64,000 bases of DNA from Eubacteriales bacterium. GTDB taxonomy: Bacteria; Bacillota; Clostridia; Oscillospirales; CAG-272. The stretch covers positions 1,590-65,589 of the forward strand of contig JAZSHT010000104.1 in the NCBI GenBank assembly GCA_045533435.1, in the 5' to 3' direction. The notes beneath the pieces were generated by a model that was not told the DNA's origin, searched no databases, and saw nothing but the letters and a program-made list of their open reading frames with translations. This document shows, in pieces, positions 17,355 through 61,670 of the stretch; the first letter of the stretch is position 1, and each line of letters opens with the position of its first letter. The translations under genes and the position numbers were made by a program.

Positions 17355-17360
17355 TAAAAC

Positions 17361-28440: not shown

Positions 28441-28478
28441 GAGAACTTGCATTTTTTTGCAAGTTCTCTTCATTTTTA
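28441..28478 (+). terminator. terminator-like hairpin about 140 nt downstream of ilvE
   Basis: 11-bp stem GAGAACTTGCA / TGCAAGTTCTC with a T6 loop, then TTCATTTTT. Confidence 0.55.
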
Positions 28479-28490
28479 TGTCTGTTTTTT

Positions 28491-28644
28491 AGACGCGAAC
28501 ACAGGCGGTCATAGGGCCCCCCGTAAAAATCTGTCAAGATTTTTGGGGAATGACTATTCCGTACGCAAGTACGCTTACGAGAACCCCCTAAACTCATACT
28601 TCGTTTTGGGGAACCCCTATTACGCTCCGTGTTAAAGCGCGTCT
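28491..28644 (+). ncRNA. candidate structured RNA (closing helix plus three internal hairpins, one with a GCAA tetraloop)
   Basis: P1 is AGACGCG/AACAC (28491-28502) pairing with GTGTT/CGCGTCT (28629-28644). P2 is 28519-28548, P3 is CGTAC-GCAA-GTACG at 28560-28573, P4 is 28585-28611. It sits between two terminator-like hairpins. I recognise no family. Confidence 0.3.
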
Positions 28645-28671
28645 TCTGCACTCATTTCACTATCCCCATTC

Positions 28672-28715
28672 AAAAAAGGGGCTTTTGCTTAACGCAACAG
28701 CCCCTTTTATTTTTG
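28672..28715 (+). terminator. rho-independent terminator
   Basis: AAAAGGGGC ... GCCCCTTTT plus a T-run. Confidence 0.7.
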
Positions 28716-28744
28716 TTGACAACTCTATAATATAATGATATACT
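28716..28744 (+). promoter_or_regulatory. sigma-A promoter of the GH38/CotH operon
   Basis: TTGACA, 17 nt, TATACT. Confidence 0.65.
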
Positions 28745-28778
28745 GAGTATAACTACGGACAAACAAGGGCGGTTTATT

Positions 28779-35245: not shown

Positions 35246-35263
35246 GATATAGGGTATAGGGGT
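35236..35263 (+). repeat. heptamer array, class TAGGGTA (CAGGGTA TAGGATA TAGGGTA TAGGGGT)
   Basis: Read directly. Supplies the last codons and the TAG stop (35243-35245) of the upstream CDS. Confidence 0.85.
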
Positions 35264-35383
35264 TCACTTCGCTCACAGGGGTAATTTCCTACTAAGAAGT
35301 AATAATCTCGCTACGAAACGAAGTTGAGTAATTTCGCTATTATTGCATAACACTTAACAAAGTTAAGTTCATAACTTAAAACA

Positions 35384-36298: not shown

Positions 36299-36556
36299 AT
36301 GATAGAAACAACATTAAAAATTGATGGCATGATGTGTCCACATTGCGAAAATCATGTAAACGAAACAATACGAAACGGCTTTAATGTAAAAAGCGTAAGG
36401 TCCTCACATAAGGATGGCACAACAGTAATTACATCAAAGAATAAAATTGAGAAAATCGCTCTTGAAAAAGCAGTTACTGCCCTTGGCTATAAGCTGCTTG
36501 ATGTTAGCGAAAGAGAAGTTGAAAAGAAATGTATTTTTTCCTTCTTAAAAAAGTAA
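36299..36556 (+). CDS. heavy-metal-associated (HMA) domain protein, CopZ-like metallochaperone
   Basis: 85 aa with GMMCPHC metal-binding motif. Consensus promoter TTGACA-17-TAAAAT at 36239-36267. Confidence 0.82.
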   Translation: MIETTLKIDGMMCPHCENHVNETIRNGFNVKSVRSSHKDGTTVITSKNKIEKIALEKAVTALGYKLLDVSEREVEKKCIFSFLKK

Positions 36557-36558: not shown

Positions 36559-36597
36559 TAGCCGCCAGCCGTTAGCAGCCAGCGGTCAGCCGTTAAC
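36559..36597 (+). repeat. heptamer array, class TAGCCGT (TAGCCGC CAGCCGT TAGCAGC CAGCGGT CAGCCGT TAAC)
   Basis: Read directly. Starts 2 nt after the TAA stop of the CopZ-like gene. Confidence 0.85.
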
Positions 36598-36643: not shown

Positions 36644-36676
36644 AAAATTCCCACACAGGTGTGTGGGAATTTTTTT
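36644..36676. terminator. bidirectional terminator
   Basis: AAAATTCCCACAC-AGGT-GTGTGGGAATTTT. Confidence 0.85.
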
Positions 36677-37976: not shown

Positions 37977-39623
37977 ATGAAAGAACAAACATCAACATTA
38001 TTATTAAAAATCCTATTTGCCGTGATTTTGGTGGCACTTGTAGGTTACGCTATATTCTATTTTGCATTACCTGCATTTAACTTCCGCTCCCCTGGATTTT
38101 ACATTTATATTTCAATTCTTGCTATTGTAGGTGCGTTACCGTTTACGGGATTTAGAATTAACCACCAACGAAACAAAGTTAAAAAAGGTAACAGAAATTA
38201 TTATCAATCATCATATCACGTTGACTTTAACAAGTGGACACTTTTTGCTTTAATTCCTCTTGCGGTTTTGATTTTAGGTCTTATCTTTTCATCCACATTC
38301 TTTAATGCAAGACGCTATGCAGATGTAATTGAGGTTAAGGAAGCAGATTTTGCTACCGATTTACCCGAAACCACGGAAATTACAAATATCGCACTTATGG
38401 ATACTGCATCTGCTAAAATCTTAGGCAACCGTACACTTGGCTCACTTTCCAATGTGGTATCTCAATACACCTTAAACGATTATTATACTCAAATAAACTA
38501 CAAGGGGTCCCCTAAAAAGGTTACAACCCTTGAATATGATGGATTTTTCAAATGGGCAATTAACAATCACGAGGGTATTCCCGGTATGGTTATGGTTGAC
38601 CCTGTAAAAAGTAGTGCAGAGTATGTGAAATTTGAAAATCCTATATTCTATACAGAAAGCGGATATTTCAAAGAAGACCTTCAGAGAAAATTAAGATTTG
38701 AATATCCAACAAAGATTTTTCAGTCCATCAGCTTTGAAATTGATGATAACGGTCAACCGTTCTATATAGTATCCTGTGCTAAACCAAAGGTATCACTTTT
38801 TGGTGCTATGGATATAAATGAAGTAATTATTTTTAACCCAACAAACGGCGAAAGCGAAATTTACTCTCTTGAAAATACACCCTCTTGGATTGACATTGTT
38901 TATACAGGCGATTTAGCATGTAAAAAATACGACTGGCACGGCGAGCTTTCCGGTGGCTTCTTTAATAGCATTATCGGTAATGTAGGCTGTAAGCATTCAA
39001 CTGATGACTTCGGTTATATTGTTATCGGCGATGATGTGTGGTATTTTACCGGTGTAACATCTGCCGTTTCAAACGATAAATCAAATATCGGTTTCTTACT
39101 CACAAATGCAAGAACAGGCGAATATAAATTTTATTCCGTAATTGGCGCAGAGGAGCATTCCGCAATGGATGCAGCAGAGGGCGAAGTACAAGAAAAGGGC
39201 TATGTAGCATCCTTCCCATCCCTTGTTAATATTTCAGGTCAAGCAACCTATATTATGGTATTAAAGGATGATGCAGGACTTGTTAAGCTATACGCGTTAG
39301 TTAATGTGGAAAATTACAGTATTGTAGCCACAGGCTCAACTCAAGCAGATGCAATGAGTGCATACAAAAAGCTCTTAAAGCAAAACAATATTGATATCGG
39401 TGCAGATACAAGCGTTGATATTACAGTAGAAAATGTTCGTATTGCATTAGTATCAGGAGTTTCAACAGTTTATATCACATCAACCGATGGCAAGGTATAT
39501 AAGGGCTATCTTGAAGCAGATGAATCACTTATTCTAGTCCGCCAAGGAGATAAATTAAATATTTCCTACACCGAAAGCGATAAGAAGGATATTTTCATAA
39601 TTTCTTCGTGGAGGTTTAATTAG
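37977..39623 (+). CDS. hypothetical membrane-anchored protein with a large extracytoplasmic domain
   Basis: The ATG at 37977 has RBS AAGGAG (MKEQTSTLLLKILF...); the track's TTG start at 37923 is unsupported. 3 TM segments then about 420 aa. The TAG stop abuts a conserved box and a heptamer array. Confidence 0.7.
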   Translation: MKEQTSTLLLKILFAVILVALVGYAIFYFALPAFNFRSPGFYIYISILAIVGALPFTGFRINHQRNKVKKGNRNYYQSSYHVDFNKWTLFALIPLAVLILGLIFSSTFFNARRYADVIEVKEADFATDLPETTEITNIALMDTASAKILGNRTLGSLSNVVSQYTLNDYYTQINYKGSPKKVTTLEYDGFFKWAINNHEGIPGMVMVDPVKSSAEYVKFENPIFYTESGYFKEDLQRKLRFEYPTKIFQSISFEIDDNGQPFYIVSCAKPKVSLFGAMDINEVIIFNPTNGESEIYSLENTPSWIDIVYTGDLACKKYDWHGELSGGFFNSIIGNVGCKHSTDDFGYIVIGDDVWYFTGVTSAVSNDKSNIGFLLTNARTGEYKFYSVIGAEEHSAMDAAEGEVQEKGYVASFPSLVNISGQATYIMVLKDDAGLVKLYALVNVENYSIVATGSTQADAMSAYKKLLKQNNIDIGADTSVDITVENVRIALVSGVSTVYITSTDGKVYKGYLEADESLILVRQGDKLNISYTESDKKDIFIISSWRFN

Positions 39624-39636
39624 TTCGCTTCGCTCA

Positions 39637-39671
39637 CAGCGGTCAGCCGTTAGCCGTTAGCGGTTAGCGAG
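39637..39671 (+). repeat. heptamer array, class TAGCCGT (CAGCGGT CAGCCGT TAGCCGT TAGCGGT TAGCGAG)
   Basis: Read directly. Preceded by the TAG stop (39621-39623) and the box TTCGCTTCGCTCACAG. Confidence 0.88.
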
Positions 39672-39795
39672 ATTTGTTTAGCGAATGTAGCTTCACTCTG
39701 ATTTAATACTAAATTTTTCTATGGCAGAGAAGGGGGAAAACCGCCACCTCCTGCGGTCCCCTCTCTCTGTCTTTTTGCAAAGAAAGGAGCGGATT

Positions 39796-40335
39796 ATGAA
39801 AAACAGAATTTATGCACCAAAGCAATCAAAGAGCATTTTTATAGTTGGAATCGCTTTTTTCATATTTTCTATGATTTTAAGCATATTTATAGTCGCTCTG
39901 ACATTTTCAAGTGAAGATATTGTTGCTTCCATTGTGTTGTCAATTATCATTTTTTCTTTTTCCATCTCTATGTTAATAAGCTGTTTATTTGTTATGAACA
40001 GAGAATGTGGCAAAATGTGGTATGATACGGAAAGCAAGGAAATATGCAGAGAAGGGTACATAAAATTCTTTAAGCATACGGTAAAATTAGAAAACATTAA
40101 AGACATTATAATAATACCAATATACAGAGCCGGTCTTTATTTTCAGCTTGTGGAAGAAGATAACGAAAATTGTAGCAAAGCATCAAAAAAGCATCCTATC
40201 CGCTTGCCATTAACCGATAAAAGCATTGAATTTATAAAAGTGTTTTGGGATAAGCCAATAACACATAAATTAGATTCCCACGGCAATGTATTAGATATTA
40301 CCGATTACGAAAGAAGACTTTACGGCTTGAAATAA
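39796..40335 (+). CDS. hypothetical membrane protein (TM hairpin plus small cytosolic domain)
   Basis: The ATG at 39796 has RBS AAAGGAG (MKNRIYAPKQ...). The track start at 39721 would read through a hairpin in the spacer. Confidence 0.6.
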   Translation: MKNRIYAPKQSKSIFIVGIAFFIFSMILSIFIVALTFSSEDIVASIVLSIIIFSFSISMLISCLFVMNRECGKMWYDTESKEICREGYIKFFKHTVKLENIKDIIIIPIYRAGLYFQLVEEDNENCSKASKKHPIRLPLTDKSIEFIKVFWDKPITHKLDSHGNVLDITDYERRLYGLK

Positions 40336-40353: not shown

Positions 40354-40388
40354 CTGACCACCGACCACTAAACACTGACCACTAAAAA
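40354..40388 (-). repeat. heptamer array, reverse orientation of class TGGTCAG (CTGACCA CCGACCA CTAAACA CTGACCA CTAAAAA)
   Basis: Read directly. Overlaps the start of a rho-independent terminator. Confidence 0.8.
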
Positions 40389-40501: not shown

Positions 40502-41947
40502 ATGAAAATTGACGAAAGAAAATTAACCTTGCTTTGCGACTTTTACGAGCTTACTATGGCAAGAGGATATTTTCACTCTGAAATTAAGGACAAGATTGCA
40601 TACTTTGATGTGTTTTTTAGAAAAGTGCCAGACAATGGCGGTTATGCTATTTTCTGCGGTCTTGAACAAATTATTGAATATATTAAGTCTATCAAATTTG
40701 AGGATGATGATATTGAATATCTTCGTTCAAAGGGAATTTTTGACGAGGAATTTTTAGCTTACTTAAAGGACTTTAAGTTCAGAGGCGACATTTGGAGCGT
40801 TCCTTCAGGCACGGTAATTTTCCCAAATGAGCCTATTATGACTGTTCGCGGAACTGCTATGGAAGCACAATTTATTGAAACATTTATTCTTTTAGTTGTA
40901 AACCATCAAAGCTTAGTTGCAACTAAAGCATCAAGAATTGTAAGAGCCGCAAATGGCAGACCTGTATCCGAATTTGGAGCAAGACGCGCCCACGGTCCTG
41001 ATGCTGCAATTTATGGCTCACGAGCTGCATATATTGGCGGATGTGCATCTACATCATGCGCTATTTCCGATAAAATGTTTGGCGCAAAGGCAGGTGGCAC
41101 TATGGCGCACTCCTGGATTCAAATGTTTGACACAGAGTACGATGCTTTTAAAACCTACTGCACTCTCTATCCCGATAATCCAACGCTTTTAATTGATACC
41201 TACGATGTATTAAACAGCGGTCTTCCAAATGCTATTAAAGCATTCAAGGACTGTCTAAGTGAGGAGCAAAGAGAGCATTGCGCTATCCGCATTGATAGCG
41301 GCGATATTACCTATCTTACAAAAAAGATAAGAAAAATCCTTGATAATAGCGGACTTACAAAATGCAAGATTGTAGTTTCTAACTCCCTTGATGAATACAT
41401 TATAAGAGATATTCTTTTACAAGGCGCGCAGATTGATATGTTTGGCGTTGGCGAAAGACTTATTACTGCAAAGAGCGAGCCTGTTTTCGGTGGTGTATAT
41501 AAGCTATGCGCAGTTGAGGATGAAAGAGGAATTACACCAAAAATCAAAATAAGTGAAAATGCCGCAAAGATTACAAATCCCGACTTTAAAAAGGTATATC
41601 GCTTCTATTCAAAGGACACAGGCAAGGCAGAGGCAGACCTTCTTACAATTCATGATGAGGTTATTGATACATCAAAGCCTTATGAGCTTTTTGACCCAGA
41701 CCACACATGGAAGCGTAAGGTAATGGATAATTACACATTAAGAGAATTACTTGTTCCTGTATTTGTAAAAGGCGAATGTGTTTACGAAAATCCAACCATT
41801 GAAGAAATTCGCGCATACTGTCAAAGGGAGCTTGATTCCATGTGGGATGAGGTGCTTCGCTTTGAAAATCCACATAATTATTATGTTGACTTGTCTCAAA
41901 AATTGTTTGATGAGAAGCATAAATTACTTCGTCAAGGACGGAAGTAA
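40502..41947 (+). CDS. pncB: nicotinate phosphoribosyltransferase
   Basis: 481 aa with a typical NAPRTase N-terminus (LTLLCDFYELTMARGYF) and the HSWIQ motif. Confidence 0.93.
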   Translation: MKIDERKLTLLCDFYELTMARGYFHSEIKDKIAYFDVFFRKVPDNGGYAIFCGLEQIIEYIKSIKFEDDDIEYLRSKGIFDEEFLAYLKDFKFRGDIWSVPSGTVIFPNEPIMTVRGTAMEAQFIETFILLVVNHQSLVATKASRIVRAANGRPVSEFGARRAHGPDAAIYGSRAAYIGGCASTSCAISDKMFGAKAGGTMAHSWIQMFDTEYDAFKTYCTLYPDNPTLLIDTYDVLNSGLPNAIKAFKDCLSEEQREHCAIRIDSGDITYLTKKIRKILDNSGLTKCKIVVSNSLDEYIIRDILLQGAQIDMFGVGERLITAKSEPVFGGVYKLCAVEDERGITPKIKISENAAKITNPDFKKVYRFYSKDTGKAEADLLTIHDEVIDTSKPYELFDPDHTWKRKVMDNYTLRELLVPVFVKGECVYENPTIEEIRAYCQRELDSMWDEVLRFENPHNYYVDLSQKLFDEKHKLLRQGRK

Positions 41948-41949: not shown

Positions 41950-41983
41950 TAGTGGTCAGTGATCAGTGGTCAGTGATCAGTAG
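41950..41983 (+). repeat. heptamer array, left arm of an inverted pair (TAG TGGTCAG TGATCAG TGGTCAG TGATCAG TAG)
   Basis: Starts 2 nt after the pncB TAA. Complementary to 42073-42103. Confidence 0.92.
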
Positions 41984-42072
41984 ATTTCTTGACAATTGTA
42001 ACTAAAAAAGAATAGTAAGGATAAGCTTTTAAGCAGTACAGCTTTCGTTGTTTTTGGTCGTTTGCTAAACAT

Positions 42073-42103
42073 CTGACCACTGACCACTGACTACTGACCA
42101 CTG
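42073..42103 (-). repeat. heptamer array, right arm of an inverted pair (CTGACCA CTGACCA CTGACTA CTGACCA CTG)
   Basis: Ends 17 nt before the ymdB ATG. The reverse complement matches the left arm except at 2-3 positions. Confidence 0.92.
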
Positions 42104-44195: not shown

Positions 44196-44203
44196 TATTA
44201 TTA

Positions 44204-44376
44204 GTTATGAATCCGCTATGCGAATGTTATGAACTTGCTACGCAAGCGTTATGAATTTTGCGAAACAAAATGTTATGATATGATTGCCAAACGCCGTCAG
44301 GCTCATAACACGCGTAGCGTTCATAACGACGAAGTCTCATAACTTGTCCTGAGGCTTCGCGGAAGGCAATCATAAC
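44204..44376. repeat. zipper element: 4 x GTTATGA then 4 x TCATAAC, each separated by 8-26 nt
   Basis: GTTATGA at 44204, 44226, 44248, 44272. TCATAAC at 44303, 44321, 44337, 44370. Spacers contain mini-hairpins (CTTGC-TAC-GCAAG). Confidence 0.85.
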
Positions 44377-44377
44377 T

Positions 44378-44410
44378 GTTCTCCTTTCGGAGAACGAAAG
44401 GAGAACTATG
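44378..44410 (+). promoter_or_regulatory. alternative hairpins involving the Shine-Dalgarno sequence of the MBL gene
   Basis: GTTCTCCTTTC (44378-44388) is exactly complementary to GAAAGGAGAAC (44396-44406, the RBS). Its first 7 nt also pair with GGAGAAC (44389-44395). Confidence 0.5.
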
Positions 44411-45181
44411 ATTACTGCATACACACTTTTCTCAGGCTCAGGTGGGAACTGTACATATGTAACAGATGGAAAAGCAAAAATACTTATTGATGCCGGAAAG
44501 AGCTGTCTTGCCATTGAAAAAGCTCTTAATGCTCTTGGCGCATCACTTTCAAGCATCAACGATATTTTTGTAACTCACGAGCATAGCGACCACACCGTAG
44601 GGCTTGAGGTAATTTCTAAAAAATATAATATTCCTGTGCATTTTGCTTACCCTTCATACGATAAGGCAATTCAAAACACCACATATTTAAAGCGTAGTGC
44701 TATTCGCCACGAGGTGCTTTTTGAGAAAAAGGTGGGGGATGTGTTAATAAAATCCTTTGAGGTGCCACACGATAGTATGCAAAATCTTGGCTACATAATA
44801 AGTGATGGCGAGGACACCTTCGGCACTGCTACCGATATGGGACATGTTACCGAAAGCCTTGCAAATGAGCTTATAAAATGTAGATGTGTTTTAATTGAAG
44901 CAAACCACGATAAAAAGATGCTTAAGGAAGGAAAGTATCCACAGTTTTTAAAGGATAGAATTTTGTCCCCACACGGACATTTATCAAATGAAAACTGCGC
45001 CCGCCTTGCTTGCTATCTTGCAGATAACGGAGTTAAATGCATCACTCTTGGGCATTTAAGCAAGGAAAATAATTTACCAAAAATTGCACTTGACACAGTA
45101 AATAACTTACTTGAAGCAAATAATTTATCCGTCGATTTATCTGTCGCTTCATCTGAAGAAGCGGTATTGCTTACAAGGTAA
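44408..45181 (+). CDS. MBL-fold metallo-hydrolase (YycJ/WalJ-like)
   Basis: 257 aa with HEHSDH motif. The RBS is embedded in alternative hairpins. Confidence 0.85.
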   Translation: MITAYTLFSGSGGNCTYVTDGKAKILIDAGKSCLAIEKALNALGASLSSINDIFVTHEHSDHTVGLEVISKKYNIPVHFAYPSYDKAIQNTTYLKRSAIRHEVLFEKKVGDVLIKSFEVPHDSMQNLGYIISDGEDTFGTATDMGHVTESLANELIKCRCVLIEANHDKKMLKEGKYPQFLKDRILSPHGHLSNENCARLACYLADNGVKCITLGHLSKENNLPKIALDTVNNLLEANNLSVDLSVASSEEAVLLTR

Positions 45182-45187: not shown

Positions 45188-45218
45188 TAGTGGTCAGTGG
45201 CTAGTGGTCAGTGGTCAG
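45188..45218 (+). repeat. heptamer array, left arm (TAG TGGTCAG TGGCTAG TGGTCAG TGGTCAG)
   Basis: Starts 6 nt after the TAA of the MBL gene. Complementary to 45330-45356. Confidence 0.92.
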
Positions 45219-45329
45219 TAAGCTTGCTATACGACTTTTACAACTAACCGCTAATTATGTACCGCTTATTAAAATGACGTTTAACGCTTATCTTTGTTTT
45301 TGTTCGTGTTCTTTGGTCTATCCGCTTGT

Positions 45330-45356
45330 CACTGACCACTGACCACTGATCACTAC
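45330..45356 (-). repeat. heptamer array, right arm (CA CTGACCA CTGACCA CTGATCA CTAC)
   Basis: Followed by AAAA and then CGACTGAAAGGAG (45361-45373) and the rsmG ATG. Confidence 0.92.
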
Positions 45357-47550: not shown

Positions 47551-47697
47551 ATATATATAATGATGAATAAAAATGCAAATTTTATTTAAAAAATGCAACA
47601 AATTTTCATTTGTTAACACATTGTTCATAATTATGTGATAGAATAAAGTATATTTTTTTATTTTATATAATAATTAATTTATATTAGCTTATGATAT

Positions 47698-47735
47698 CTG
47701 CTGACGGCTGACAGCTAACGGCTGGTGGCTGTTCA
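47698..47735 (-). repeat. heptamer array, reverse orientation of class TAGCCGT (CTG CTGACGG CTGACAG CTAACGG CTGGTGG CTGTTCA)
   Basis: Read directly. Lies in the 5' UTR, ending 26 nt before the citrate synthase ATG. Confidence 0.85.
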
Positions 47736-47761: not shown

Positions 47762-49135
47762 ATGGCAAGAGTAAAGAAAGAATTAACACAATTAACTCCA
47801 CAGCTTATGGGTTATGTAGAAAAATGCTCAATCAATACAACTATTGAAGCAGAGCTTTTTGACAAATATAATGTAAAAAGAGGACTTAGAGAAAAGGACG
47901 GTAAGGGTGTAGTTGTAGGTCTTACTGAAATTTCCGAGGTACAGGGCTTTAAGTATGTTGATGGCGTAAGAACTCCTTGCGAGGGCGAGCTTTTCTACCG
48001 TGGTATCAATATTTATGACCTTGTTGATGGATTTTTAAATGATGGCAGACACGGCTACGAGGAAACTATTTACCTTCTTCTTTTCGGTGTTCTTCCAAAT
48101 AAAGAGGAGCTTGATGATTTTATAAAGCTACTTTCAAAATATCGTTCACTTCCAAAGAATTTCGTTCGTGATATTCTTATGAAGGCATCAGGCAAGGACA
48201 TGATGAACTCACTTGCACGAAGCGTGCTTACTCTTTATGCTTATGATGACAAGGCAGATGATACATCAATTCCTAATGTGCTTCGCCAAAGCTTACAGTT
48301 AATTTCAGAGTTTCCACTTTTAGCGGTTTATGCATATCATGCATATGAATTCTATGAAAAGAAAAATAGCTTAGTTATTCGCCCACCAAAGGCGGGACTT
48401 TCAACTGCGGAAAACTTCCTTTATATGCTAAGAAAGGATGGAAAATATACTCCACTTGAAGCAAGAATTCTTGATGTTGCGTTAGTTTTACACGCAGAGC
48501 ACGGTGGCGGTAACAACTCCACCTTTACAACTCATGTTGTTTCATCATCCGGTACAGACACATACTCAACAATTGCCGCATCCCTTGGCTCACTTAAGGG
48601 TCCAAGACACGGTGGCGCTAACATTAAGGTTGTTGAAATGATTGAAGACATTAAGAAAAATGTTAAGGATTGGACAGATGAAAACCAAATTTCCGATTAC
48701 CTAAACAAAATCTTAAATAAAGAAGCATTTGATGGCAAGGGACTTATTTACGGTATGGGACATGCCATTTACTCTAAATCCGACCCAAGAGCTTGTATTT
48801 TAAGAAGATTTGTTGAAAAGCTTTCAAAGGAAAAGGGCAAGGATAAGGACTATAAGCTTTGTCAGTTAATTGAAAGACTTGCACCCAAAATCATCGCAGA
48901 GCATAAAGCAATTTTCAAGGGCGTAAGCGCAAATATTGACTTTTATAGTGGATTTATCTATGATATGCTTGATATTCCTCACGAGCTATATACACCACTC
49001 TTTGCAATTTCTCGTATTGCAGGCTGGAGCGCACACCGCCTTGAGGAAATCTTAATGAACGGTAAAATCATCCGTCCTGCTTATCAGGAAATCATCCCAA
49101 GAGGCACTTATGTTCCTATGGAAGAAAGAAAATAG
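47762..49135 (+). CDS. citrate synthase
   Basis: 457 aa with motifs HAEHGGGNNSTF, GPRHGGAN, GMGHAIY. The TAG stop is followed directly by a TGGTCAG array. Confidence 0.93.
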   Translation: MARVKKELTQLTPQLMGYVEKCSINTTIEAELFDKYNVKRGLREKDGKGVVVGLTEISEVQGFKYVDGVRTPCEGELFYRGINIYDLVDGFLNDGRHGYEETIYLLLFGVLPNKEELDDFIKLLSKYRSLPKNFVRDILMKASGKDMMNSLARSVLTLYAYDDKADDTSIPNVLRQSLQLISEFPLLAVYAYHAYEFYEKKNSLVIRPPKAGLSTAENFLYMLRKDGKYTPLEARILDVALVLHAEHGGGNNSTFTTHVVSSSGTDTYSTIAASLGSLKGPRHGGANIKVVEMIEDIKKNVKDWTDENQISDYLNKILNKEAFDGKGLIYGMGHAIYSKSDPRACILRRFVEKLSKEKGKDKDYKLCQLIERLAPKIIAEHKAIFKGVSANIDFYSGFIYDMLDIPHELYTPLFAISRIAGWSAHRLEEILMNGKIIRPAYQEIIPRGTYVPMEERK

Positions 49136-49163
49136 TGGTCAGTGGCTAGTGATCAGTAGTTAG
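49133..49163 (+). repeat. heptamer array (TAG TGGTCAG TGGCTAG TGATCAG TAG TTAG)
   Basis: The first TAG is the citrate synthase stop. Followed by TTAGCTTTTGCACAACATTACA, which is homologous to the sequence next to the array at 52941-52974. Confidence 0.92.
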
Positions 49164-49191
49164 CTTTTGCACAACATTACACATACTAAAA

Positions 49192-49221
49192 AACGCATAC
49201 ATCTTTTCGGTGTATGCGTTT
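49192..49221 (+). repeat. 30-bp direct repeat copy 1 (terminator hairpin AACGCATACATCTTTTCGGTGTATGCGTTT)
   Basis: Identical 30-mer at 52070-52099. The two copies bracket the R-M cassette. Confidence 0.95.
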
Positions 49222-52069: not shown

Positions 52070-52099
52070 AACGCATACATCTTTTCGGTGTATGCGTTT
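52070..52099 (+). repeat. 30-bp direct repeat copy 2
   Basis: Identical to 49192-49221. Also serves as a bidirectional terminator for 51305-52042 (+) and 52101-52433 (-). Confidence 0.95.
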
Positions 52100-52885: not shown

Positions 52886-52911
52886 ACGCATACGGATTTC
52901 CGTATGCGTTT
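52886..52911. terminator. terminator related in sequence to the 30-bp direct repeats
   Basis: AACGCATACGG-ATTT-CCGTATGCGTT. Same ACGCATAC/GTATGCGT stem ends as 49192 and 52070. Confidence 0.8.
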
Positions 52912-52940
52912 TATTATTTGTAAGCTTGTGCAAAATCTAA

Positions 52941-52974
52941 CTGCTGACCGCTGACCACTGATCACTGACCACTA
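52941..52974 (-). repeat. heptamer array (reverse complement: TAG TGGTCAG TGATCAG TGGTCAG CGGTCAG CAG)
   Basis: This TAG is the stop of the minus-strand gene 52972-53847. Inverted counterpart of the array at 49133-49163. Confidence 0.92.
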
Positions 52975-53874: not shown

Positions 53875-53910
53875 CAGGGAATAGGGTATAGGGAATAGGA
53901 GATAGGGAAA
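53875..53910 (+). repeat. heptamer array, class TAGGGTA (CAGGGAA TAGGGTA TAGGGAA TAGGAGA TAGGGAA)
   Basis: Lies in the 5' UTR of the minus-strand gene and reads CCCTAT-type in that mRNA. Adjacent to CGACTGAAAGGAG (reverse complement of 53858-53870). Confidence 0.9.
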
Positions 53911-53961
53911 TTTGCCTTACTCCTATTTCATTATAAATATTCTAACATTTTATAATATAAG

Positions 53962-53980
53962 TGTCAATAAAATATTGACA
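53962..53980. promoter_or_regulatory. palindrome TGTCAATAAAATATTGACA carrying back-to-back -35 boxes of divergent promoters
   Basis: Plus strand: TTGACA (53975-53980), 17 nt, TATTAT (53998-54003). Minus strand: TTGACA (reverse complement of 53962-53967), 17 nt, TAGAAT (reverse complement of 53939-53944). Confidence 0.6.
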
Positions 53981-54170
53981 AATAGATAAAAAAGTTGTAT
54001 TATGCTTTGGGAATAATTTTTTAACTAGCAGATGAACACTGACCAGTAATATGCAATCTTCGGTTGATTCCATACAATCCTTGACTGATTGCATATGACC
54101 TTCGGTCAATTCCATACAATGCTTTGCGTTGATTACATACACATCTGCGATGTGATTGCGACTTTGTCGC

Positions 54171-54204
54171 ATCCCTATCCCCTATCCCCTATATCCTATC
54201 CCCC
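54171..54204 (-). repeat. heptamer array, CCCTATC-type (ATCCCTA TCCCCTA TCCCCTA TATCCTA TCCCCC)
   Basis: Lies in the 5' UTR of the transporter gene. Followed by AAAG and then CGACTGAAAGGAG (54209-54221). Confidence 0.9.
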
Positions 54205-55491: not shown

Positions 55492-57318
55492 ATGATTAGA
55501 GACGACTTAAGAAATGTAGCAATTATTGCTCACGTTGACCACGGCAAAACAACTCTTGTTGACGGTATGCTTCAGCAAGGTGGCGCATATCACGAAAACC
55601 AAGCAACTACTGACAGAGTAATGGACTCTAACGCTCTTGAAAAGGAAAGAGGAATTACTATCCTTGCAAAAAATACTGCTATTCACTATGGCGACAAAAA
55701 AATCAATGTAATTGACACCCCAGGCCACGCTGACTTTGGCGGCGAGGTTGAAAGAATTCTTAAAATGGTTAACGGTGTTATCCTTCTTGTTGATGCAGCA
55801 GAGGGACCAATGCCACAAACAAGATTCGTTCTTCGCAAGGCTATGGAATTAAATCACAGAATTATCGTTGTTGTTAATAAGATTGACCGTCCTGATGCTC
55901 GTGTAACTGAGGTTATTGATGAGGTTTTAGAGCTTCTTATTGACTTAAATGCAACTGATGAGCAGCTTGACTCTCCAATGCTTTTCTGCTCAGGTAGAGC
56001 AGGCACAGCGTCATTCTCTCCTGATGTAGAGGGCGAAAACTTAATTCCACTTCTTGATACAATCGTAAATTACATTCCAGCTCCAGAGGGAGAAGAGGAT
56101 GAAAGCCTTCAATTACTCGTTTCATCTATTGACTATAACGAGTATGTTGGTAAAATCGGTGTAGGTAGAATTGAAAGAGGCTCACTTAAGGTAAACCAAG
56201 AGGTTACAGTATGTAACTTCCACTCAGATGAAGCTCCAAGAAGAGCAAAAATCGTTTCAATTTATCAATTTGATGGTCTTTCCCGTACACAGGTACAAAG
56301 TGCAACAGTTGGCGATATCGTATGCTTCTCAGGTGTTGAAGAGCTTTCAATCGGCGATACACTTTGCTCTGCTGGTAATGTTGAGCCACTTGAATTTGTA
56401 AAGGTTTCAGAGCCTACTCTTGAAATGACATTTGCAGTTAACGATAGCCCATTTGCAGGCAAAGAAGGTAAATTCGTAACATCCCGCCAAATTAGAGACC
56501 GCCTTTACAAGGAAACACTTAAGGATGTATCTCTCCGTGTAAGCGATGGCGACACTACCGACTCATTTAGAGTTGCAGGTAGAGGCGAAATGCACTTATC
56601 AATCCTTATTGAAACAATGCGCCGTGAGGGCTTTGAGCTTTGCTGCTCAACTCCAAGAGTGCTTTATAAAACAATTGATGGCATTTTACATGAGCCAATG
56701 GAAAGAGTTTCTATTGATGTACCGGCAGAGAGCGCAGGCGCAGTTATTCAAAAGCTTAGCGCAAGAAAGGGCGAGCTTTTAGAAATGGACCCAACAGGCT
56801 CAAGAACTAAGCTTGAATATATTATTCCATCAAGATGCTTACTTGGTTACAGAAACGAGTTTATGACAGATACAAAGGGCGAGGGCATTTTAAATACACT
56901 CTTTGATGGCTATCAACCATTCAAGGGAGAGGTTGTAACAAGATTTACAGGCTCACTTATCGCATCCGAAACAGGCGAAGCAACATCATACGGTCTATTT
57001 AAGACACAAGACAGAGGCGCTATGTTTATCGGCGTTCAAACTCCTGTTTATGAGGGAATGATTGTTGGCGAATGTCCAAAGATGGAGGATATCGTTCTTA
57101 ATGTTTGCCAAAAGAAGCACTTAACTGCTATTCGTTCAAAGGGCGCAGATGAGGCTTTAATTCTCGTTCCACCAAAGCAATTATCCCTTGAGCAAGCTAT
57201 TGAGTATATTGCGGATGATGAGCTTATTGAGGTAACACCTAAGTCAATTAGATTAAGAAAGAAAATTCTTGATACTGCATTAAGACTTAAGGCGCAAGCG
57301 AAATTAAAAAAGCAGTGA
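55492..57318 (+). CDS. typA: translational GTPase TypA/BipA
   Basis: The ATG at 55492 has RBS AAAGGAG ([24 protein letters not shown]). The TGA stop lies inside the first TGATCAG unit of an array. Confidence 0.95.
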
Positions 57319-57350
57319 TCAGTGGTCAGTGGTCAGTGTTCAGCAGCTAG
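57313..57350 (+). repeat. heptamer array (CAG TGATCAG TGGTCAG TGGTCAG TGTTCAG CAG CTAG)
   Basis: The typA TGA stop (57316-57318) is part of the first unit. Confidence 0.9.
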
Positions 57351-57382
57351 ACTAACGAATAGATTTCAATTAAATACGCAAG

Positions 57383-57506: not shown

Positions 57507-58754
57507 ATGTTTTCAGAAAAGATATTAAATATAGCATCTGAGGCGGAAAGGGAGCTTGCTCCGATTTTTGCTAAGATTGATGAAATTTCATTTAAAAATA
57601 CACAAAGAGTGCTTGAAAGCTTTAAGGAATTTAAGGTTGCCGAGAGTATGTTTGCAGGCACAACTGGTTATGGCTACGATGATATTGGCAGAGACACACT
57701 TGATAAAATTTATGCCGATGTTTTCGGAGCAGAAAGTGCATTTGTAAGACACTCAATAGCCAACGGCACAAGCGCACTTACAATCGGATTGTTTGGACTT
57801 TTAAGACCAAATGATGTGCTTTTATCAGTTACAAATCAACCATATGATACTCTTTGCGAGGTAATCGGCATTAACGGTGCAAACGGAGATGGCTCACTTG
57901 CGGATTTTGGTGTAAAATACGATCAGGTTGACTTTAAAAACGAGGAAATTGACTTTGAGGGAATTGAGAAAAAGCTCAATGAATATGGAGATAGCGTTAA
58001 GGTTGTTTTCATTCAACGCTCAAAGGGATATTTAAATAGACCGACACTTACAATAGACCAAATTGGCGAAATTTGCGATTTTGTTCACAAAAGAAGCAAA
58101 TCGTATGTGGTTGTTGACAACTGCTATGGCGAATTTTGCGAGGATAGAGAGCCTTGCCATGTGGGAGCAGATATGATAATCGGCTCACTTATTAAAAATC
58201 CAGGTGGCGGAATTGCCGAAAGCGGTGGATATATTGCAGGCACAAAAAGAGCAGTTGAGTTAGCTTCCTACCGTTTAACCTCTGCCGGCACAGGATGCGA
58301 GGTAGGTGCATCTTTAGGTCAAAACAGAAATATGTTCAAGGGATTTTTCTTAGCACCTCACATTGTGGCTCAGGCTATTAAAACTGCACATTTTGCCGCA
58401 TATGTGTTTGAAAAATTAGGCTTTGATGTATCTCCAAGGTATAACGAAATGCGCTCGGATATTATCCAAACAATTAAGTTTGGATACGCTGATGGTCTTA
58501 TTAAATTCTGCCAAGGAATTCAAAGCGCATCCCCTGTTGACTCTTATGTAACTCCTGTGCCATGGGCAATGCCAGGCTATCAGGATGAGGTAATTATGGC
58601 AGCAGGCGCATTTACTCAAGGCTCATCAATAGAAATTTCAGCAGACGGTCCTATTCGCATACCATATACCGCATTTTTACAAGGCGGTCTAACCTTTGAA
58701 AGCGGAAAAATCGCAATATTAACAGCAGCTTCGCTGCTAGGGGATAGGATATAG
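57507..58754 (+). CDS. YnbB / aluminium-resistance family PLP-dependent (Met gamma-lyase-like) protein
   Basis: 415 aa with the typical FAGTTGYGYDDIGRDTLD N-terminal region. The last 4-5 codons and the TAG stop are encoded by the TAGGGGA/TAGGATA array. Confidence 0.85.
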   Translation: MFSEKILNIASEAERELAPIFAKIDEISFKNTQRVLESFKEFKVAESMFAGTTGYGYDDIGRDTLDKIYADVFGAESAFVRHSIANGTSALTIGLFGLLRPNDVLLSVTNQPYDTLCEVIGINGANGDGSLADFGVKYDQVDFKNEEIDFEGIEKKLNEYGDSVKVVFIQRSKGYLNRPTLTIDQIGEICDFVHKRSKSYVVVDNCYGEFCEDREPCHVGADMIIGSLIKNPGGGIAESGGYIAGTKRAVELASYRLTSAGTGCEVGASLGQNRNMFKGFFLAPHIVAQAIKTAHFAAYVFEKLGFDVSPRYNEMRSDIIQTIKFGYADGLIKFCQGIQSASPVDSYVTPVPWAMPGYQDEVIMAAGAFTQGSSIEISADGPIRIPYTAFLQGGLTFESGKIAILTAASLLGDRI

Positions 58755-58772
58755 GATATAGGGGATAGGGAT
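58738..58772 (+). repeat. heptamer array (TAGGGGA TAGGATA TAGGATA TAGGGGA TAGGGAT)
   Basis: Spans the end of the ynbB-like CDS (stop TAG at 58752-58754) and the entire 18-nt spacer up to the rlmH ATG at 58773. Confidence 0.92.
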
Positions 58773-59255
58773 ATGTTGAATATCAAAATTATAGCCACAG
58801 GCGATGTAAAGGAAGCATATTGGCAAAACGCCATTAAGGAATATCAAAAAAGACTTGGCGCTTGGTGCAAAATTGAGGAAATTATTTTAAAGGAAGAAAG
58901 ACTTCCCGATAATCCCACACAATCACAAATTGACAAAGCCCTTGAATGTGAGGAAAAGCGAATTTTAGAAAAGCTTTCCTCAAAATCATATGTGATTGCA
59001 ATGTGCGTTGAGGGTAAGCAGTTATCAAGCGAGGAGCTTGCCTCAAAGATAACCGATATAACAAATTTAGGCAAAAGCGAGATAGTTTTTATCATCGGCT
59101 CATCCTTTGGTCTATCCAAAAAGGTCAAGGAAGTGTCTGATTTTAAGCTCTCAATCTCAAAATTAACCTTCCCACATCAATTATTAAGAGTTATTTTACA
59201 CGAAACGATTTATAGGTCATTAAGTATTATTTATGGTACGAAGTACCATAAATAA
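58773..59255 (+). CDS. rlmH: 23S rRNA (pseudouridine1915-N3)-methyltransferase
   Basis: 160 aa in the SPOUT family (IGSSFGLS...LSISKLTFPHQL). The start codon directly follows the heptamer array. Confidence 0.92.
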   Translation: MLNIKIIATGDVKEAYWQNAIKEYQKRLGAWCKIEEIILKEERLPDNPTQSQIDKALECEEKRILEKLSSKSYVIAMCVEGKQLSSEELASKITDITNLGKSEIVFIIGSSFGLSKKVKEVSDFKLSISKLTFPHQLLRVILHETIYRSLSIIYGTKYHK

Positions 59256-59287: not shown

Positions 59288-59353
59288 ATTTACTTATGAT
59301 TTTTTAACAATTTATTCAATGTTTTCAACTCAATAAATCAAAATTGTTACTTG

Positions 59354-59381
59354 CTGTAAGCTGGCGGCTGGCGGCTATAAC
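59354..59381 (-). repeat. heptamer array, reverse-type (CTGTAAG CTGGCGG CTGGCGG CTATAAC)
   Basis: Partially complementary to 59256-59287, separated by a 66-nt AT-rich loop. Confidence 0.8.
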
Positions 59382-59619
59382 AAAAAGCTTCGGCAAAACC
59401 AGAAGCTCAGAGGGTGAGGGAAAATTCGTGAACGCGTACACGTCGGCGTACTGGTGTACGACAGAGTAGCGGTCGCGAATAGAAAAGCAAAAATGGAATT
59501 TCTCCCAAAGGGAAAATTCCTTCCTTGAATAGCTTCTTTATCGTATTGAAAAACAGGCAGCAATATATATTTTGCTTTTCGGTTTCACCAGCCTGTGAGT
59601 TTCTCATTGGAGGATTTAT

Positions 59620-61494
59620 ATGAAATCAGCACAGATATGCGTAATAGGCGCAGGCCACGCAGGAATAGAAGCATCTTTAGCATCCGCAAGAATGGGAATG
59701 GACACCATTCTTTTCACAATGTCCCTAGATGCTATTGCAAATATGCCTTGCAATCCATCAATCGGTGGTACTGCAAAGGGTCATTTAGTATATGAAATTG
59801 ACGCTCTTGGCGGAGAAATGGGCAGAGGCGCAGATAATGTTACCTTGCAATCAAGAACATTAAATTTAGGCAAGGGTGCGGCTGTTTACTCAAAGAGAGT
59901 ACAAGCGGACAGAATGAAATACCGTGATATAATGAAGTCCACTCTTGAAAATACGCCTAACCTTCGTGTAATTCAAGCAGAAATTGTTGATATTAAAACA
60001 ATAGAGGAAAACGGTATTAAGAAAATTGATAGCGTGATTACCCGTTTAGGCGAGGAATATAAGACACAGTGTGCCATTATTTGCACAGGTACATATCTTA
60101 ATGCCACCATTCACACAGGTAATATCTGTTATCAAAGCGGACCGGACTCCCTTTCAGGGGCTAATTTCTTAACGGAAGCGTTAAAGCGTGAGGGTATAAA
60201 TCTTATGCGCTTTAAAACAGGCACGCCTTCAAGAATTCATGCGGACAGTATTGATTATTCTAAGCTTGAAATTCAAGAGGGAGAAAGCGACACTCTTCCT
60301 TTCTGCTGGGAAACCGATGAAAAGGAATACCAAAAAAAGAGCCAAATTCCTTGCTATATCGTTTATACAAACTTAAATACTCACGAAATTATAAAGTCTA
60401 ACATAAAGAAAAGTGCAATGTATTCAGGCAATATTACAGGCACAGGTCCAAGATATTGCCCATCTATTGAAGACAAAATCGTGCGCTTTGCCGACAAGGA
60501 AAGACATCAGCTTTTCGTTGTGCCTATGGGCTTAAATACTAAGGAAATTTACTTACAAGGCTTTTCAACAAGTATGCCTATTGATGTTCAAGAAAAGATG
60601 GTACACTCTCTGGTTGGCTTTGAAAATGCAAAAATTATGCGTTATGCATACGCAATTGAATATGATTGCACCGACCCACAAGAGCTGCTTGCCACCCTTG
60701 AATACAAAAAAATCAGTGGTTTATACGGCGCAGGACAGTTTAATGGTACATCAGGCTATGAGGAAGCCGCAGCCCAAGGACTTGTGGCAGGTATCAATGC
60801 TGTATTAAAAATCAAAGGCGAAGAGCCTATGATTTTACCTCGTTCATCATCATATATTGGCACTTTAATTGATGACCTTGTAACAAAGGGCACAAATGAG
60901 CCATACAGAATGATGACCTCACGAAGCGAATACCGTTTGCTTTTACGCCAAGACAATGCGGACAAGCGTTTAACTCCTATCGGCCGCCGTGTAGGTCTTG
61001 TAAGTGATAAGCAATGGGACTACTACCAAAGAAAGCAACAAGCAATCGAAGCGGAAAAGGAAAGACTAAAAACCGTTCACATTAAGCCATCAAAAGAGGT
61101 AAATGAGGTAGTTGAAGCATTAGGCACAACTCCGCTTTATGCAGGAATGACTCTTTATGAGCTTATTAAAAGACCTCAAATTGACCTTAACAATATGGCA
61201 AAATTCGACACATCCCGCCCAATTTTGCCTCAAAGTGTAGTTTTCACCGCTCAAACAGACATTAAATACGATGGCTATGTAAAAAAACAGTTAGCCGAGG
61301 TTGCCCGTACCGAAAAATTAGAGGAAAAGCCTCTCCCCGCCGACCTTGATTACACCGAAATCAAAGGACTTCGCATAGAAGCATGTCAAAAGCTAAACAA
61401 GGTAAAGCCATTAACCTTAGGTCAAGCATCTCGTATCAGCGGCGTTTCCCCTGCGGACATTTCCGTTCTTTTGATTTACTTACAATCGAAATAG
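59620..61494 (+). CDS. mnmG: tRNA uridine-5-carboxymethylaminomethyl(34) synthesis enzyme MnmG (GidA)
   Basis: 624 aa with FAD motif VIGAGHAGIEA and the GTGPRYCPSIEDK motif. Confidence 0.96.
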   Translation: MKSAQICVIGAGHAGIEASLASARMGMDTILFTMSLDAIANMPCNPSIGGTAKGHLVYEIDALGGEMGRGADNVTLQSRTLNLGKGAAVYSKRVQADRMKYRDIMKSTLENTPNLRVIQAEIVDIKTIEENGIKKIDSVITRLGEEYKTQCAIICTGTYLNATIHTGNICYQSGPDSLSGANFLTEALKREGINLMRFKTGTPSRIHADSIDYSKLEIQEGESDTLPFCWETDEKEYQKKSQIPCYIVYTNLNTHEIIKSNIKKSAMYSGNITGTGPRYCPSIEDKIVRFADKERHQLFVVPMGLNTKEIYLQGFSTSMPIDVQEKMVHSLVGFENAKIMRYAYAIEYDCTDPQELLATLEYKKISGLYGAGQFNGTSGYEEAAAQGLVAGINAVLKIKGEEPMILPRSSSYIGTLIDDLVTKGTNEPYRMMTSRSEYRLLLRQDNADKRLTPIGRRVGLVSDKQWDYYQRKQQAIEAEKERLKTVHIKPSKEVNEVVEALGTTPLYAGMTLYELIKRPQIDLNNMAKFDTSRPILPQSVVFTAQTDIKYDGYVKKQLAEVARTEKLEEKPLPADLDYTEIKGLRIEACQKLNKVKPLTLGQASRISGVSPADISVLLIYLQSK

Positions 61495-61496
61495 CC

Positions 61497-61637
61497 CTTA
61501 CTTTTTCTTTGGAAAAAGAAAAAGTAGGCAAAAAGAAATCGAAAGGTACACACAAACAAAATCGTTAGTTTTCTTATTCTTTGGAAAAAGAAAAAGTAAG
61601 CAAAAAGAAATCAAAAAGACATACAAACATAAAAATT
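61497..61637 (+). repeat. tandem duplication, period about 72 bp, 2 copies, each starting with a Y-tract/R-tract hairpin
   Basis: The core CTTTGGAAAAAGAAAAAGTA(G/A)GCAAAAAGAAATC(G/A)AAA occurs at 61506 and 61578. Confidence 0.85.
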
Positions 61638-61670
61638 AAGCCCTGCTGATTTTGTCAGTAGGGCTTTGTT
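61638..61670. terminator. bidirectional terminator
   Basis: AGCCCTGCTGA-TTTTG-TCAGTAGGGCT (1 mismatch) plus TTTGTTTT. Confidence 0.75.

Follow-up and report, generated by a model that had tools for sequence, protein, structure and literature searches.

The 64,000 nucleotides (nt) at positions 1,590 to 65,589 of contig JAZSHT010000104.1 (Eubacteriales bacterium, GenBank assembly GCA_045533435.1), referred to here as the window, hold housekeeping genes of a not yet cultured lineage of Clostridia from animal guts, and the spacers between these genes carry tandem arrays of 7-nt units. The arrays have the form YAG(N4-YAG)n, in which Y is T or C, and they lie so close to the stop codons of the genes that they often contain them. 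Comparison with orthologs shows that the position of the stop is constant, while the identity of the stop codon (TAA or TGA exchanged for TAG) and the family of the array vary. The overlap between arrays and stop codons is probably a by-product of the flush and polar docking of arrays of the type known as short tandemly repeated repetitive (STRR) sequences, and not a selected function.

Docking of heptamer arrays at stop codons

The main data are the window (36% GC) and about 120 kb of sequence from close relatives. The nearest genomes are metagenome-assembled genomes from ruminant, deer and human faeces, and the relatives' sequences used for comparison carry L-numbers (L001, L019, L161 etc.) or the label P0121. 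Genes recognised with Pfam in the window include mutS, mutL, tgt, two polysaccharide deacetylases, a beta-lactamase-family serine hydrolase, pncB, ymdB, galK, a gene with a metallo-beta-lactamase (MBL) fold, rsmG, citrate synthase, a CitMHS transporter, typA, a Met_gamma_lyase (YnbB-like) gene, rlmH and mnmG; the scan covered 20 array-adjacent genes. Arrays were detected with Tandem Repeats Finder and a period-7 autocorrelation scan, and then as runs of at least three YAG triplets at 7-nt spacing, which gave 14 to 19 arrays of three to six head-to-tail units. There are 19 YAG runs of at least three triplets, 18 of them with at least four, compared with 1.9 and 0.0 in Markov shuffles. Three unit families occur in the window, namely family 1 (YAGTGGT, nine arrays), family 2 (YAGCNGT, six arrays) and family 3 (TAGGGNA, four arrays). 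All 19 arrays lie in spacers or reach at most the last five codons of a gene. Their density is about one per 3 kb, the stops of about 23% of the genes are array-bearing, and relative L001 holds 12 arrays in 21 kb.

Twelve of the 19 arrays are on the sense strand of the upstream gene, and every one of these begins between -14 and +16 nt from its stop codon. When the 19 arrays were placed at random in intergenic sequence 20,000 times, 1.5 on average were docked at a stop, and no placement had more than 8. An earlier sequence-only reading had listed such junctions, and its coordinates are all correct on direct reading of the DNA. Seven of the 12 stop-adjacent arrays contain the stop. It is the first TAG unit in four of them (mutS at 5605, tgt at 8838, citrate synthase at 49133 and the deacetylase at 52972-52974) and lies inside the array in the other three. 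The serine hydrolase ends GTC AGG GTA TAG, its stop (35243-35245) belonging to unit 2 of the array, and the typA TGA at 57316 lies within CAG-TGA-T. The ynbB-like gene ends CTG CTA GGG GAT AGG ATA TAG inside its array, the stop at 58752-58754 being the TAG of unit 3, and the remaining array fills the 18-nt spacer. Four genes end in TAA and are followed by an array after 2 nt (CopZ-like gene), 2 nt (pncB), 6 nt (MBL gene) or 0-5 nt (rlmH), and the array of the 37977 gene is separated from its TAG at 39621-39623 by a 13-nt box. A solitary forward array follows the stop, and after another 22-50 nt comes a separate canonical terminator.

TAG is the stop of 7 of the 11 array-bearing genes in the window and of 3 of the 42 others (Fisher p=2e-4); in the clade the corresponding counts are 14 of 24 and 12 of 104 (p=4e-6). 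Among 74 more distant relatives without arrays, TAG accounts for 77 of 847 stops (9%). The first triplet is TAG in 24 of 32 clade arrays, compared with 38 of 102 internal triplets. The association of TAG with arrays proposed in the sequence-only reading is thus borne out, and array-free orthologs have TAA or TGA at the same position. Two observations had been named as arguing against that proposal, identical C-termini in array-free orthologs and equally high TAG usage in genes without arrays. The C-termini are indeed alike, but TAG usage is not equal.

The arrays of the window are as follows (forward, plus strand; reverse, minus strand).

5605 to 5639, forward: family-2 array, TAGCCGT three times, then TAGCTGT and TAGCGAG; the TAG of unit 1 is the mutS stop.
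8838 to 8879, forward: family-1 array, TAGTGGT and then CAGTGGT five times; the TAG of unit 1 is the tgt stop, and the other two frames hold no stops.
35236 to 35263, forward: family-3 array, CAGGGTA TAGGATA TAGGGTA TAGGGGT; unit 2 supplies the TAG stop of the serine hydrolase (35243-35245).
36559 to 36593, forward: family-2 array, 2 nt past the TAA of the CopZ-like gene (heavy-metal-associated, HMA; 36299-36556); terminator at 36644-36673.
39621 to 39671, forward: TAG stop (39621-39623), 13-nt box TTCGCTTCGCTCA (39624-39636) and family-2 array (39637-39671).
40364 to 40384, reverse: short family-1 array, 24 nt past the stop of the gene at 39721-40335 and directly before a terminator.
41950 to 41984, forward, and 42069 to 42103, reverse: inverted family-1 pair between the pncB TAA (41945-41947) and the ymdB ATG (42121), with a stem of about 30 bp.
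45188 to 45222, forward, and 45328 to 45355, reverse: inverted family-1 pair between the TAA of the MBL gene (45179-45181) and the rsmG ATG (45379).
47697 to 47731, reverse: family-2 array in the 5' untranslated region (UTR) of citrate synthase, 100% identical in L001 and L161.
49133 to 49167, forward: family-1 array; the TAG of unit 1 is the citrate synthase stop; terminator at 49191-49221.
52933 to 52974, reverse: family-1/2 array; the minus-strand polysaccharide deacetylase stops at the TAG of unit 1 (52972-52974); terminator at 52910-52885.
53875 to 53909, forward, and 54171 to 54198, reverse: inward-facing family-3 pair around the divergent promoters of a deacetylase (minus strand) and the CitMHS gene.
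57313 to 57354, forward: family-1 array, CAGTGAT CAGTGGT CAGTGGT CAGTGTT CAGCAGC TAGACTA; the typA stop is the TGA at 57316-57318.
58738 to 58772, forward: family-3 array, TAGGGGA TAGGATA TAGGATA TAGGGGA TAGGGAT, from the end of the ynbB-like gene, whose last residues L-G-D-R-I it encodes, to the rlmH ATG at 58773.
59254 onward, forward: family-2 array, AAGCGGT CAGCCGT TAGCAGT TAGCTGT TAGCAGA, fused to the rlmH TAA (59253-59255); reverse partner at 59350-59377.

The box TTCGCTTCGCTCA at 39624-39636, with its variants TTCACTTCGCTCA and TTCGCGTTGCTCA, stands between a TAG stop or unit and the next array. Further copies of this type are found at 35263-35275 and 17240-17251 in the window and near 2050 in L162.

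Stop position and stop identity in orthologs

Gene ends were compared across relatives of 99% to 60% identity. Citrate synthase ends MEERK* with TAG and a family-1 array in the window, with TAA and a family-2 array in L001 and L019, and with TAG and a TAGGATG array in L002. TypA ends KKQ*, with an in-array TGA in the window and L019, TAA followed by family 2 in L001, and TAA without an array in L003 and L005; the CAG of the typA array is the ancestral last Gln codon. The deacetylase stop lies at one codon position in six genomes; five of them have an array there and use TAG, and the sixth has none and uses TAA. The tgt tail ...LGDRSTN* is equal in length to the array-free tails ...LGERSQS* and ...LGERNPD*; a metagenome scan for tgt, in which the best relative was 86% identical, was used for this length comparison alone. 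Likewise, the serine hydrolase tail ...GVRV* has the length of the array-free ...GVRK* and ...AIRV*, so the R and V residues that had been read as array-encoded are ancestral. In a 94%-identical serine hydrolase (P0121, found in three independent samples) the end reads ...VRC TAG and passes directly into a family-2 array. For mutS the orthologs compared are distant ones, and its tail comes within 1-3 residues of theirs. Overall, the ancestral stop position is kept in five of the seven stop-containing cases (tgt, serine hydrolase, citrate synthase, deacetylase and typA).

The junction between the ynbB-like gene, a member of the Met_gamma_lyase family by Pfam, and rlmH is the exception. In most relatives ynbB overlaps rlmH (...AATGCTTAA, or ...AAT GCT TAA with the rlmH ATG inside), from which ancestral translational coupling of the pair may be deduced. 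The overlap is ATGCTTAA or TAATG in most of L013-L031. In the array clade the tails are LGDRE* in L019 (two units, TAATG overlap), LGDRA* in L003 (four units) and LGDRI* in the window (five units). The L001 protein, 99% identical over residues 1-411, ends LAASRQ*, the same nucleotide position being taken by a family-2 array that encodes this end. The L, G and D residues also occur in outgroup tails, e.g. ...LLLGDNNA, and the GGGGA/AGGGA of the window array is similar to a Shine-Dalgarno sequence and lies upstream of rlmH. Judging from these gene ends, the ynbB tail is genuinely rewritten by an array that split the ancestral overlap, and the coupling with rlmH appears undone in the array clade. 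The earlier suggestion that arrays remodel C-termini therefore stands for one or two genes, ynbB among them, and not for the five genes that keep the ancestral stop position.

Polarity, pairs and predicted stems

From the gene edge into the spacer, the strand read is the YAG (G-rich) strand in 12 of 12 stop-adjacent arrays, which are forward relative to their gene, and in 6 of 6 start-adjacent arrays, which are reverse. Seven window arrays are reversed and six of these lie 17-37 nt upstream of a start codon; the array at 40364-40384 is the sole breach of the orientation rule in the window. The unrelated heptamers GAATGCG and GAATTCG found in other relatives likewise have the G-rich strand inward. 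Avoidance of start codons was considered as a source of the polarity and rejected, as families 2 and 3 have no start codons on either strand. Pairing of GUGAUC (family 1) with the 3' tail of 16S rRNA was also rejected, as it is not kept by the unit variants GUGGCC and GUAAUC.

Three start-adjacent reverse arrays directly precede a shared ribosome-binding site (RBS) box GACTGAAAGGAG, which suggests that array and RBS travel or are selected together. One of them belongs to the MBL-rsmG pair, which is followed by GACTGAAAGGAG at 45362; this pair is missing in L001 and L019. The shared box in the form (A)CGACTGAAAGGAG follows reverse arrays at 45362, 54210 and 53858 (reverse complement) and is also present in L003 upstream of mnmG and in L019. 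It precedes rsmG, the CitMHS gene (whose true start is the ATG at 54227, not the TTG at 54089) and the deacetylase.

Where two arrays of the clade are neighbours no more than 300 nt apart, they face inward in 10 cases and outward in none. The pncB-ymdB, MBL-rsmG and rlmH-mnmG spacers are predicted to fold into stems of 25-30 bp, which start 0-6 nt past the stop and leave 17-25 nt to the next ATG (dG -60, -59 and -41 kcal/mol; z-scores -4.7, -2.6 and -3.1). The fourth pair, at 53875-54198, surrounds divergent promoters; the two arrays, both in reverse orientation, occupy the 5'UTRs of two different genes, so that the arms fall in different transcripts. Paired arrays are not intrinsic terminators by sequence, since they precede CUUAAAGCGG or CAAAACGACUG and no U-run. 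A folding advantage of the sense over the antisense strand through G-U pairs was tried and rejected, the result being mixed (three of four tandem pairs, two of those orthologous).

Turnover of arrays among relatives

A strain-level relative, L161 (99.2% nt identity, identical CitS protein), has one extra unit at the citS stop, and its contig ends inside the array. In relatives at about 94-96% nt identity the same sites hold arrays of other families. Such family replacement is seen in L001, L019, L162 and L165; L001 (about 94% nt identity) has family 2 in 12 of 12 arrays, and L165 retains the boundary TAA TT TAG after pncB with both arms of family 2, compared with family 1 in the window. With L019 as outgroup, replacements are found in both lineages and directions. 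Array sites are more conserved than array sequences among the relatives. As partner arms are no better matched than non-partners, the coordinated switch of both arms reflects a genome-wide preference for a unit and not covariation specific to the pair. In an exact-protein look-up for strain-level relatives, rlmH, tgt, typA, rsmG and the deacetylase gave no record, and contigs were obtained via CitS and YmdB only.

Directional growth with decay from the outer to the inner end was examined and rejected as a phase artefact (0.62 mean mismatches in first and 0.75 in last spacers); the abrupt start of the arrays with YAG remains after the artefact is removed. The inner-end box AGCGAGATTTG was likewise discarded as a candidate, with 22 matches outside arrays against 19.7 expected and thus no enrichment.

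The same polarity in viral-collection contigs

When IMG/VR was scanned for the patterns, 107 stretches proved to hold arrays of the YAGTGGT type and 51 arrays of the YAGCCGT type, the contigs having 32-72% GC. In these 158 loci, which hold 660 arrays, stop-adjacent arrays are inward in 185 cases and not in 37, start-adjacent arrays are inward in 142 and not in 23, and pairs are inward-facing in 170 and outward-facing in 31. The commonest offset is that in which the stop codon is the first TAG unit. In some contigs almost all spacers consist of a forward array abutting a reverse array. The units include CAGTAAT and CAGTTAT, the latter beside CAGTGGT. In L173 and L177 (61% and 57% GC), the spacers of tandem genes are nearly all paired arrays, with stems of 35-60 bp made of CAGTGGY or CAGTAAT. 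A BLAST search of the contigs against named phages gave no useful match.

Explanations for the stop-codon overlap

The proposed by-product mechanism starts from STRR-type YAG(N4-YAG)n heptamers that occupy the untranslated spacers of this gut Clostridia lineage. Their YAG strand runs from coding sequence into spacer, and the sense strand at the 3' end of a gene starts abruptly with YAG, usually TAG. Because the array is flush with the reading frame, its outermost TAG, or the TGA in CAG-TGA-T, would become the stop without a shift from the ancestral position. With a register that reaches one or two units deeper into the gene, the last codons would coincide with array units. Gain and loss of units, together with genome-wide family replacement, would flip the identity of the stop and seldom the length of the protein; the identity could switch without moving the protein end because the outermost array triplet is a valid stop. 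The arrays themselves may act as RNA-level elements of UTRs. Stems of inward-facing pairs would reach from the footprint of the terminating ribosome to the next RBS and could stabilise, process or insulate the mRNA, and arrays may also serve as putative binding sites. An RNA-level role is plausible, in which arrays would be either arms of long stems, intercistronic or 3'-terminal, or sites for a YAG-reading factor.

Several points weigh against this account. A pure by-product view leaves the excess of TAG in the first unit and the abrupt flush docking unaccounted for, and the first-unit excess persists where the unit is neither a stop nor in frame. Nine of the 12 stop-adjacent window arrays are without a reverse partner, and the stem model applies to a minority. 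Partner arms pair with -30.4 kcal/mol compared with -31.9 kcal/mol for non-partner arms of the same contig, a comparison in which pair-specific covariation of arms was not found, and folding energies of sense and antisense strands are inconsistent. Calling of open reading frames (ORFs) in IMG/VR is partly circular, arrays themselves carrying stops; as the reverse strand is richer in stops than the forward strand, the resulting bias opposes the observed polarity. Finally, the sample consists of the 64 kb of the window and about 120 kb of close-relative sequence.

Selection of the arrays as three-frame stop pads, which would catch read-through or frameshifted ribosomes, is highly improbable. The enrichment of TAG in the first unit would suit such pads, as would the TGA or TAA per unit that reverse family-1 and family-2 arrays hold just upstream of the next RBS. 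The all-TAG arrays of mutS, the serine hydrolase and ynbB do stop every frame within 21 nt, as had been claimed for arrays in general, but these are 3 of the 12 stop-adjacent arrays. The other nine fail because the internal units of families 1 and 2 are mostly CAG; those of tgt, pncB and typA leave one or two frames open. Moreover, reverse family-3 arrays (CCCTATC) are stop-free, and stop-less heptamers (GAATGCG, AAGTGCG and GAATTCG) occupy the same places with the same polarity in related lineages. That arrays routinely remodel C-termini, by insertion at the 3' ends of coding sequences or expansion into them, is very doubtful. The ynbB tails, which differ between near-identical genomes (LGDRI*, LGDRA*, LGDRE* and LAASRQ*) and from the outgroup ...NA* overlapping rlmH, are what this explanation would predict, as are the MBL gene, one residue shorter with its array pair than in L001 and L019, and the one-residue difference between the P0121 and window serine hydrolases. 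It conflicts with the stop position kept in five of seven cases, with the small differences in the mutS tail, and with the occurrence of the serine hydrolase R and V and the ynbB L, G and D in array-free orthologs. Little probability is also given to arrays being the ends of small mobile elements targeting TAG or TA, often at a stop codon, in the manner of miniature inverted-repeat transposable elements (MITEs), repetitive extragenic palindromic (REP) sequences or palindrome-associated transposable elements (PATEs). Inverted pairs do resemble terminal inverted repeats, one site can hold different families in close relatives with genome-wide shifts of unit, and the MBL-rsmG junction with its RBS box GACTGAAAGGAG, common to two other loci, is present in the window and not in L001 or L019. 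However, when the interiors of four pairs and five array-flanking spacers were searched by BLAST for a MITE-like element in about 2.5 Mb of related sequence, orthologous spacers only and no paralogs were found. No target-site duplications were seen at array boundaries, and no transposase domain, including that of REP-associated tyrosine transposases (RAYTs), was present among the 20 array-flanking genes scanned with Pfam. TAG and TA are frequent in AT-rich spacers, yet arrays occur only at the real stop, and occupancy of a site outlasts the array sequence, which points to turnover in place.

Recognition by an oligomeric protein that reads YAG at 7-nt spacing, similar to the trp RNA-binding attenuation protein (TRAP), or a role as polar insulators of transcription or translation, with the unit family co-evolving, is a rather unlikely explanation. 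It agrees with the invariant YAG triplet and family-dependent 4-nt spacer, with unit preferences that shift genome-wide between close relatives, with the strict polarity kept across phyla and with the density of arrays in compact viral contigs; a binding protein has also been proposed for TAACTGA repeats (MacGregor 2015, PMC4679880). On the other hand, no candidate protein was identified, three families are present at once in the window, reverse arrays present no YAG on the mRNA, and other lineages use non-YAG units at the same positions. A broader form of this idea, also rather unlikely, takes all YAG-N4 arrays, including STRR and TAACTGA repeats, as one cross-phylum grammar of gene boundaries that is read by trans-acting machinery. 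Both ends of coding sequences would be marked by a polar element whose YAG strand always runs from gene into spacer, and its reader would be an oligomer binding RNA or single-stranded DNA, or RNase III-type processing of stems. The machinery would be conserved or spread horizontally, the TAG at the edge would be a designed junction between termination and element, and family switches would reflect co-evolution with the reader. Neutral, slippage-prone microsatellites, tolerated in the few unconstrained bases beside genes and pushed up to the stop by deletion bias, are an improbable source of the pattern. Copy number differs at strain level, heptamers are the commonest class of long simple sequence repeats in prokaryotes (as cited in PMC4679880), and, with both mutS and mutL intact, there is no need to assume a special mutator. 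However, neutrality predicts random orientation, whereas the window shows 12:0 and 6:0, and IMG/VR 185:37. The arrays are flush on the gene side only, with their inner side 22-50 nt from terminators, and few unit families are used, none of them based on TAA, the majority stop. The flush docking and the inward YAG strand are beyond what neutral slippage explains. The by-product of polar docking is retained as the probable explanation of the overlap.

Relation to known repeat systems

The arrays belong to the known class of STRR-like bacterial heptanucleotide repeats; the present analysis adds their presence in gut Clostridia, a clear polarity rule and a marked effect on the usage of stop codons. 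The cyanobacterial STRR heptanucleotides CCCCAGT, TTGGTCA and CAACAGT were reportedly described by Mazel and co-workers in 1990. Both kinds of repeat are tandem 7-nt units at many dispersed intergenic sites and vary between strains. STRR1 (CCCCAGT) and STRR3 (CAACAGT) presumably share their CAGT core with window family 1 (CAGTGGT) in the same register. The window arrays differ in their Clostridia host, in their other unit sequences and in the co-existence of three families, and systematic fusion to stop codons with enrichment of TAG is documented for them.

The REP sequences and bacterial interspersed mosaic elements (BIMEs) of enterobacteria are abundant, structured extragenic repeats of transcribed spacers, which are often near stops and thought to stabilise or modulate mRNA; each REP is an imperfect palindrome of about 35 nt, and RAYT transposases are associated with these elements. 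Although the window arrays are also abundant in spacers and often near stops, their units are 7 nt long and non-palindromic, and stems form only between oppositely oriented arrays. The repeats and unique spacers of clustered regularly interspaced short palindromic repeats (CRISPR), with repeats of 23-50 nt, are not present either, the 7-nt units being contiguous. TRAP sites in Bacillus trp leaders consist of 9-11 (G/U)AG triplets with spacers of 2-3 nt. They resemble the arrays in having a conserved xAG triplet, short variable spacers and a location in untranslated mRNA, whereas the arrays have C/U-AG triplets, 4-nt spacers and hundreds of sites at unrelated housekeeping genes.

TAACTGA direct repeats occur in marine Beggiatoaceae, Cyanobacteria and Bacteroidetes, where they are intergenic and oriented toward start codons (MacGregor 2015, PMC4679880). 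They are found mainly just upstream of starts, as single direct arrays of 2-6 copies, and 13 sets overlap the upstream stop codon, the unit itself carrying stops (PMC4679880). The window arrays are similar in being intergenic heptamers with strong orientation relative to genes. Six reverse window arrays have the equivalent orientation at 17-37 nt upstream of starts, and the majority (12) dock at stops instead. Written as its reverse complement in the YAG register, TAACTGA becomes CAGTTAT, a unit found in the IMG/VR arrays. Unlike TAACTGA repeats, the window units are YAGTGGT, YAGCNGT and TAGGGNA, the related CAGTTAT being found only in IMG/VR contigs; most window arrays are at stops, inward pairs are common, and TAG is supplied rather than TAA or TGA.

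Other spacer elements

Additional repeats and hairpins are found in the spacers of the window, where a search of Rfam 15 at the gathering threshold and at E<=0.05 gave tRNA-Pro as the sole match. The galK-MBL spacer (44196-44407) has GTTATGA at 44204, 44226, 44248 and 44272, each followed by a different mini-palindrome, and a mirror half with TCATAAC at 44303, 44321, 44337 and 44370. This architecture of words and palindromes is also found in spacers of L002, L004 and L033, with the words CAATTCATG, ACTTCAC, GATGAAATC, ATATCGA and GATGATATAC, and in relatives it is often at junctions that bear heptamer arrays in the window. A conserved double-hairpin box without an Rfam match lies past the tgt array at 8885-8931 (GCCTTCTCC-TTGA-GGAGAAGG, GTCAAC-TTT-GTTGAC, then GGATGAGGTG); it is also found after ynbB in L006, L010, L011, L014 and L027, and its junctions vary by relative. 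Three near-identical terminator hairpins (ACGCATAC...GTATGCGT) are at 49193-49219, 52071-52097 and 52886-52909, the last of them bidirectional.

The leader of about 220 nt from the reverse array to the mnmG start (59400-59619) is conserved in L001, L019 and L005 (AGAAGCTCAGAGGGTGAGGGAAAATT...GTCGGCGTACTGGTGTACG...), has no match in Rfam and may be a structured leader. Past mnmG, whose TAG stop is at 61492-61494, a tandem duplication of about 72 nt at 61495-61670 contains the palindrome CTTTTTCTTTGGAAAAAGAAAAAG twice, at 61507 and at 61579; the copy number in relatives is one or two, and their mnmG stop is TAG or TAA. The long spacers at 28305-28778 and 16517-17390 hold unusual hairpins of G and C runs, e.g. 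GGGCCCCCCGTAAAAATCTGTCAAGATTTTTGGGG at 28513, with no Rfam match, and a similar piece follows ynbB in L030.

Significance

Heptanucleotide repeats have been on record from cyanobacteria since 1990 and from sulfur bacteria since 2015, and no function is generally accepted for them. Such arrays are also abundant in an uncultured lineage of gut Clostridia, and their polarity rule is found in 158 unrelated contigs of a viral collection. The arrays drive the identity of stop codons, since most TAG stops here are array-supplied, and leave the ends of proteins largely intact. Gene callers and statistics of stop usage are biased by these repeats in array-rich genomes, and contigs tend to break at arrays, as in L161. 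Arrays can also serve as strain-level markers. If it is true that the polarity reflects a reader protein or RNA processing, the arrays would provide many natural variants for testing.

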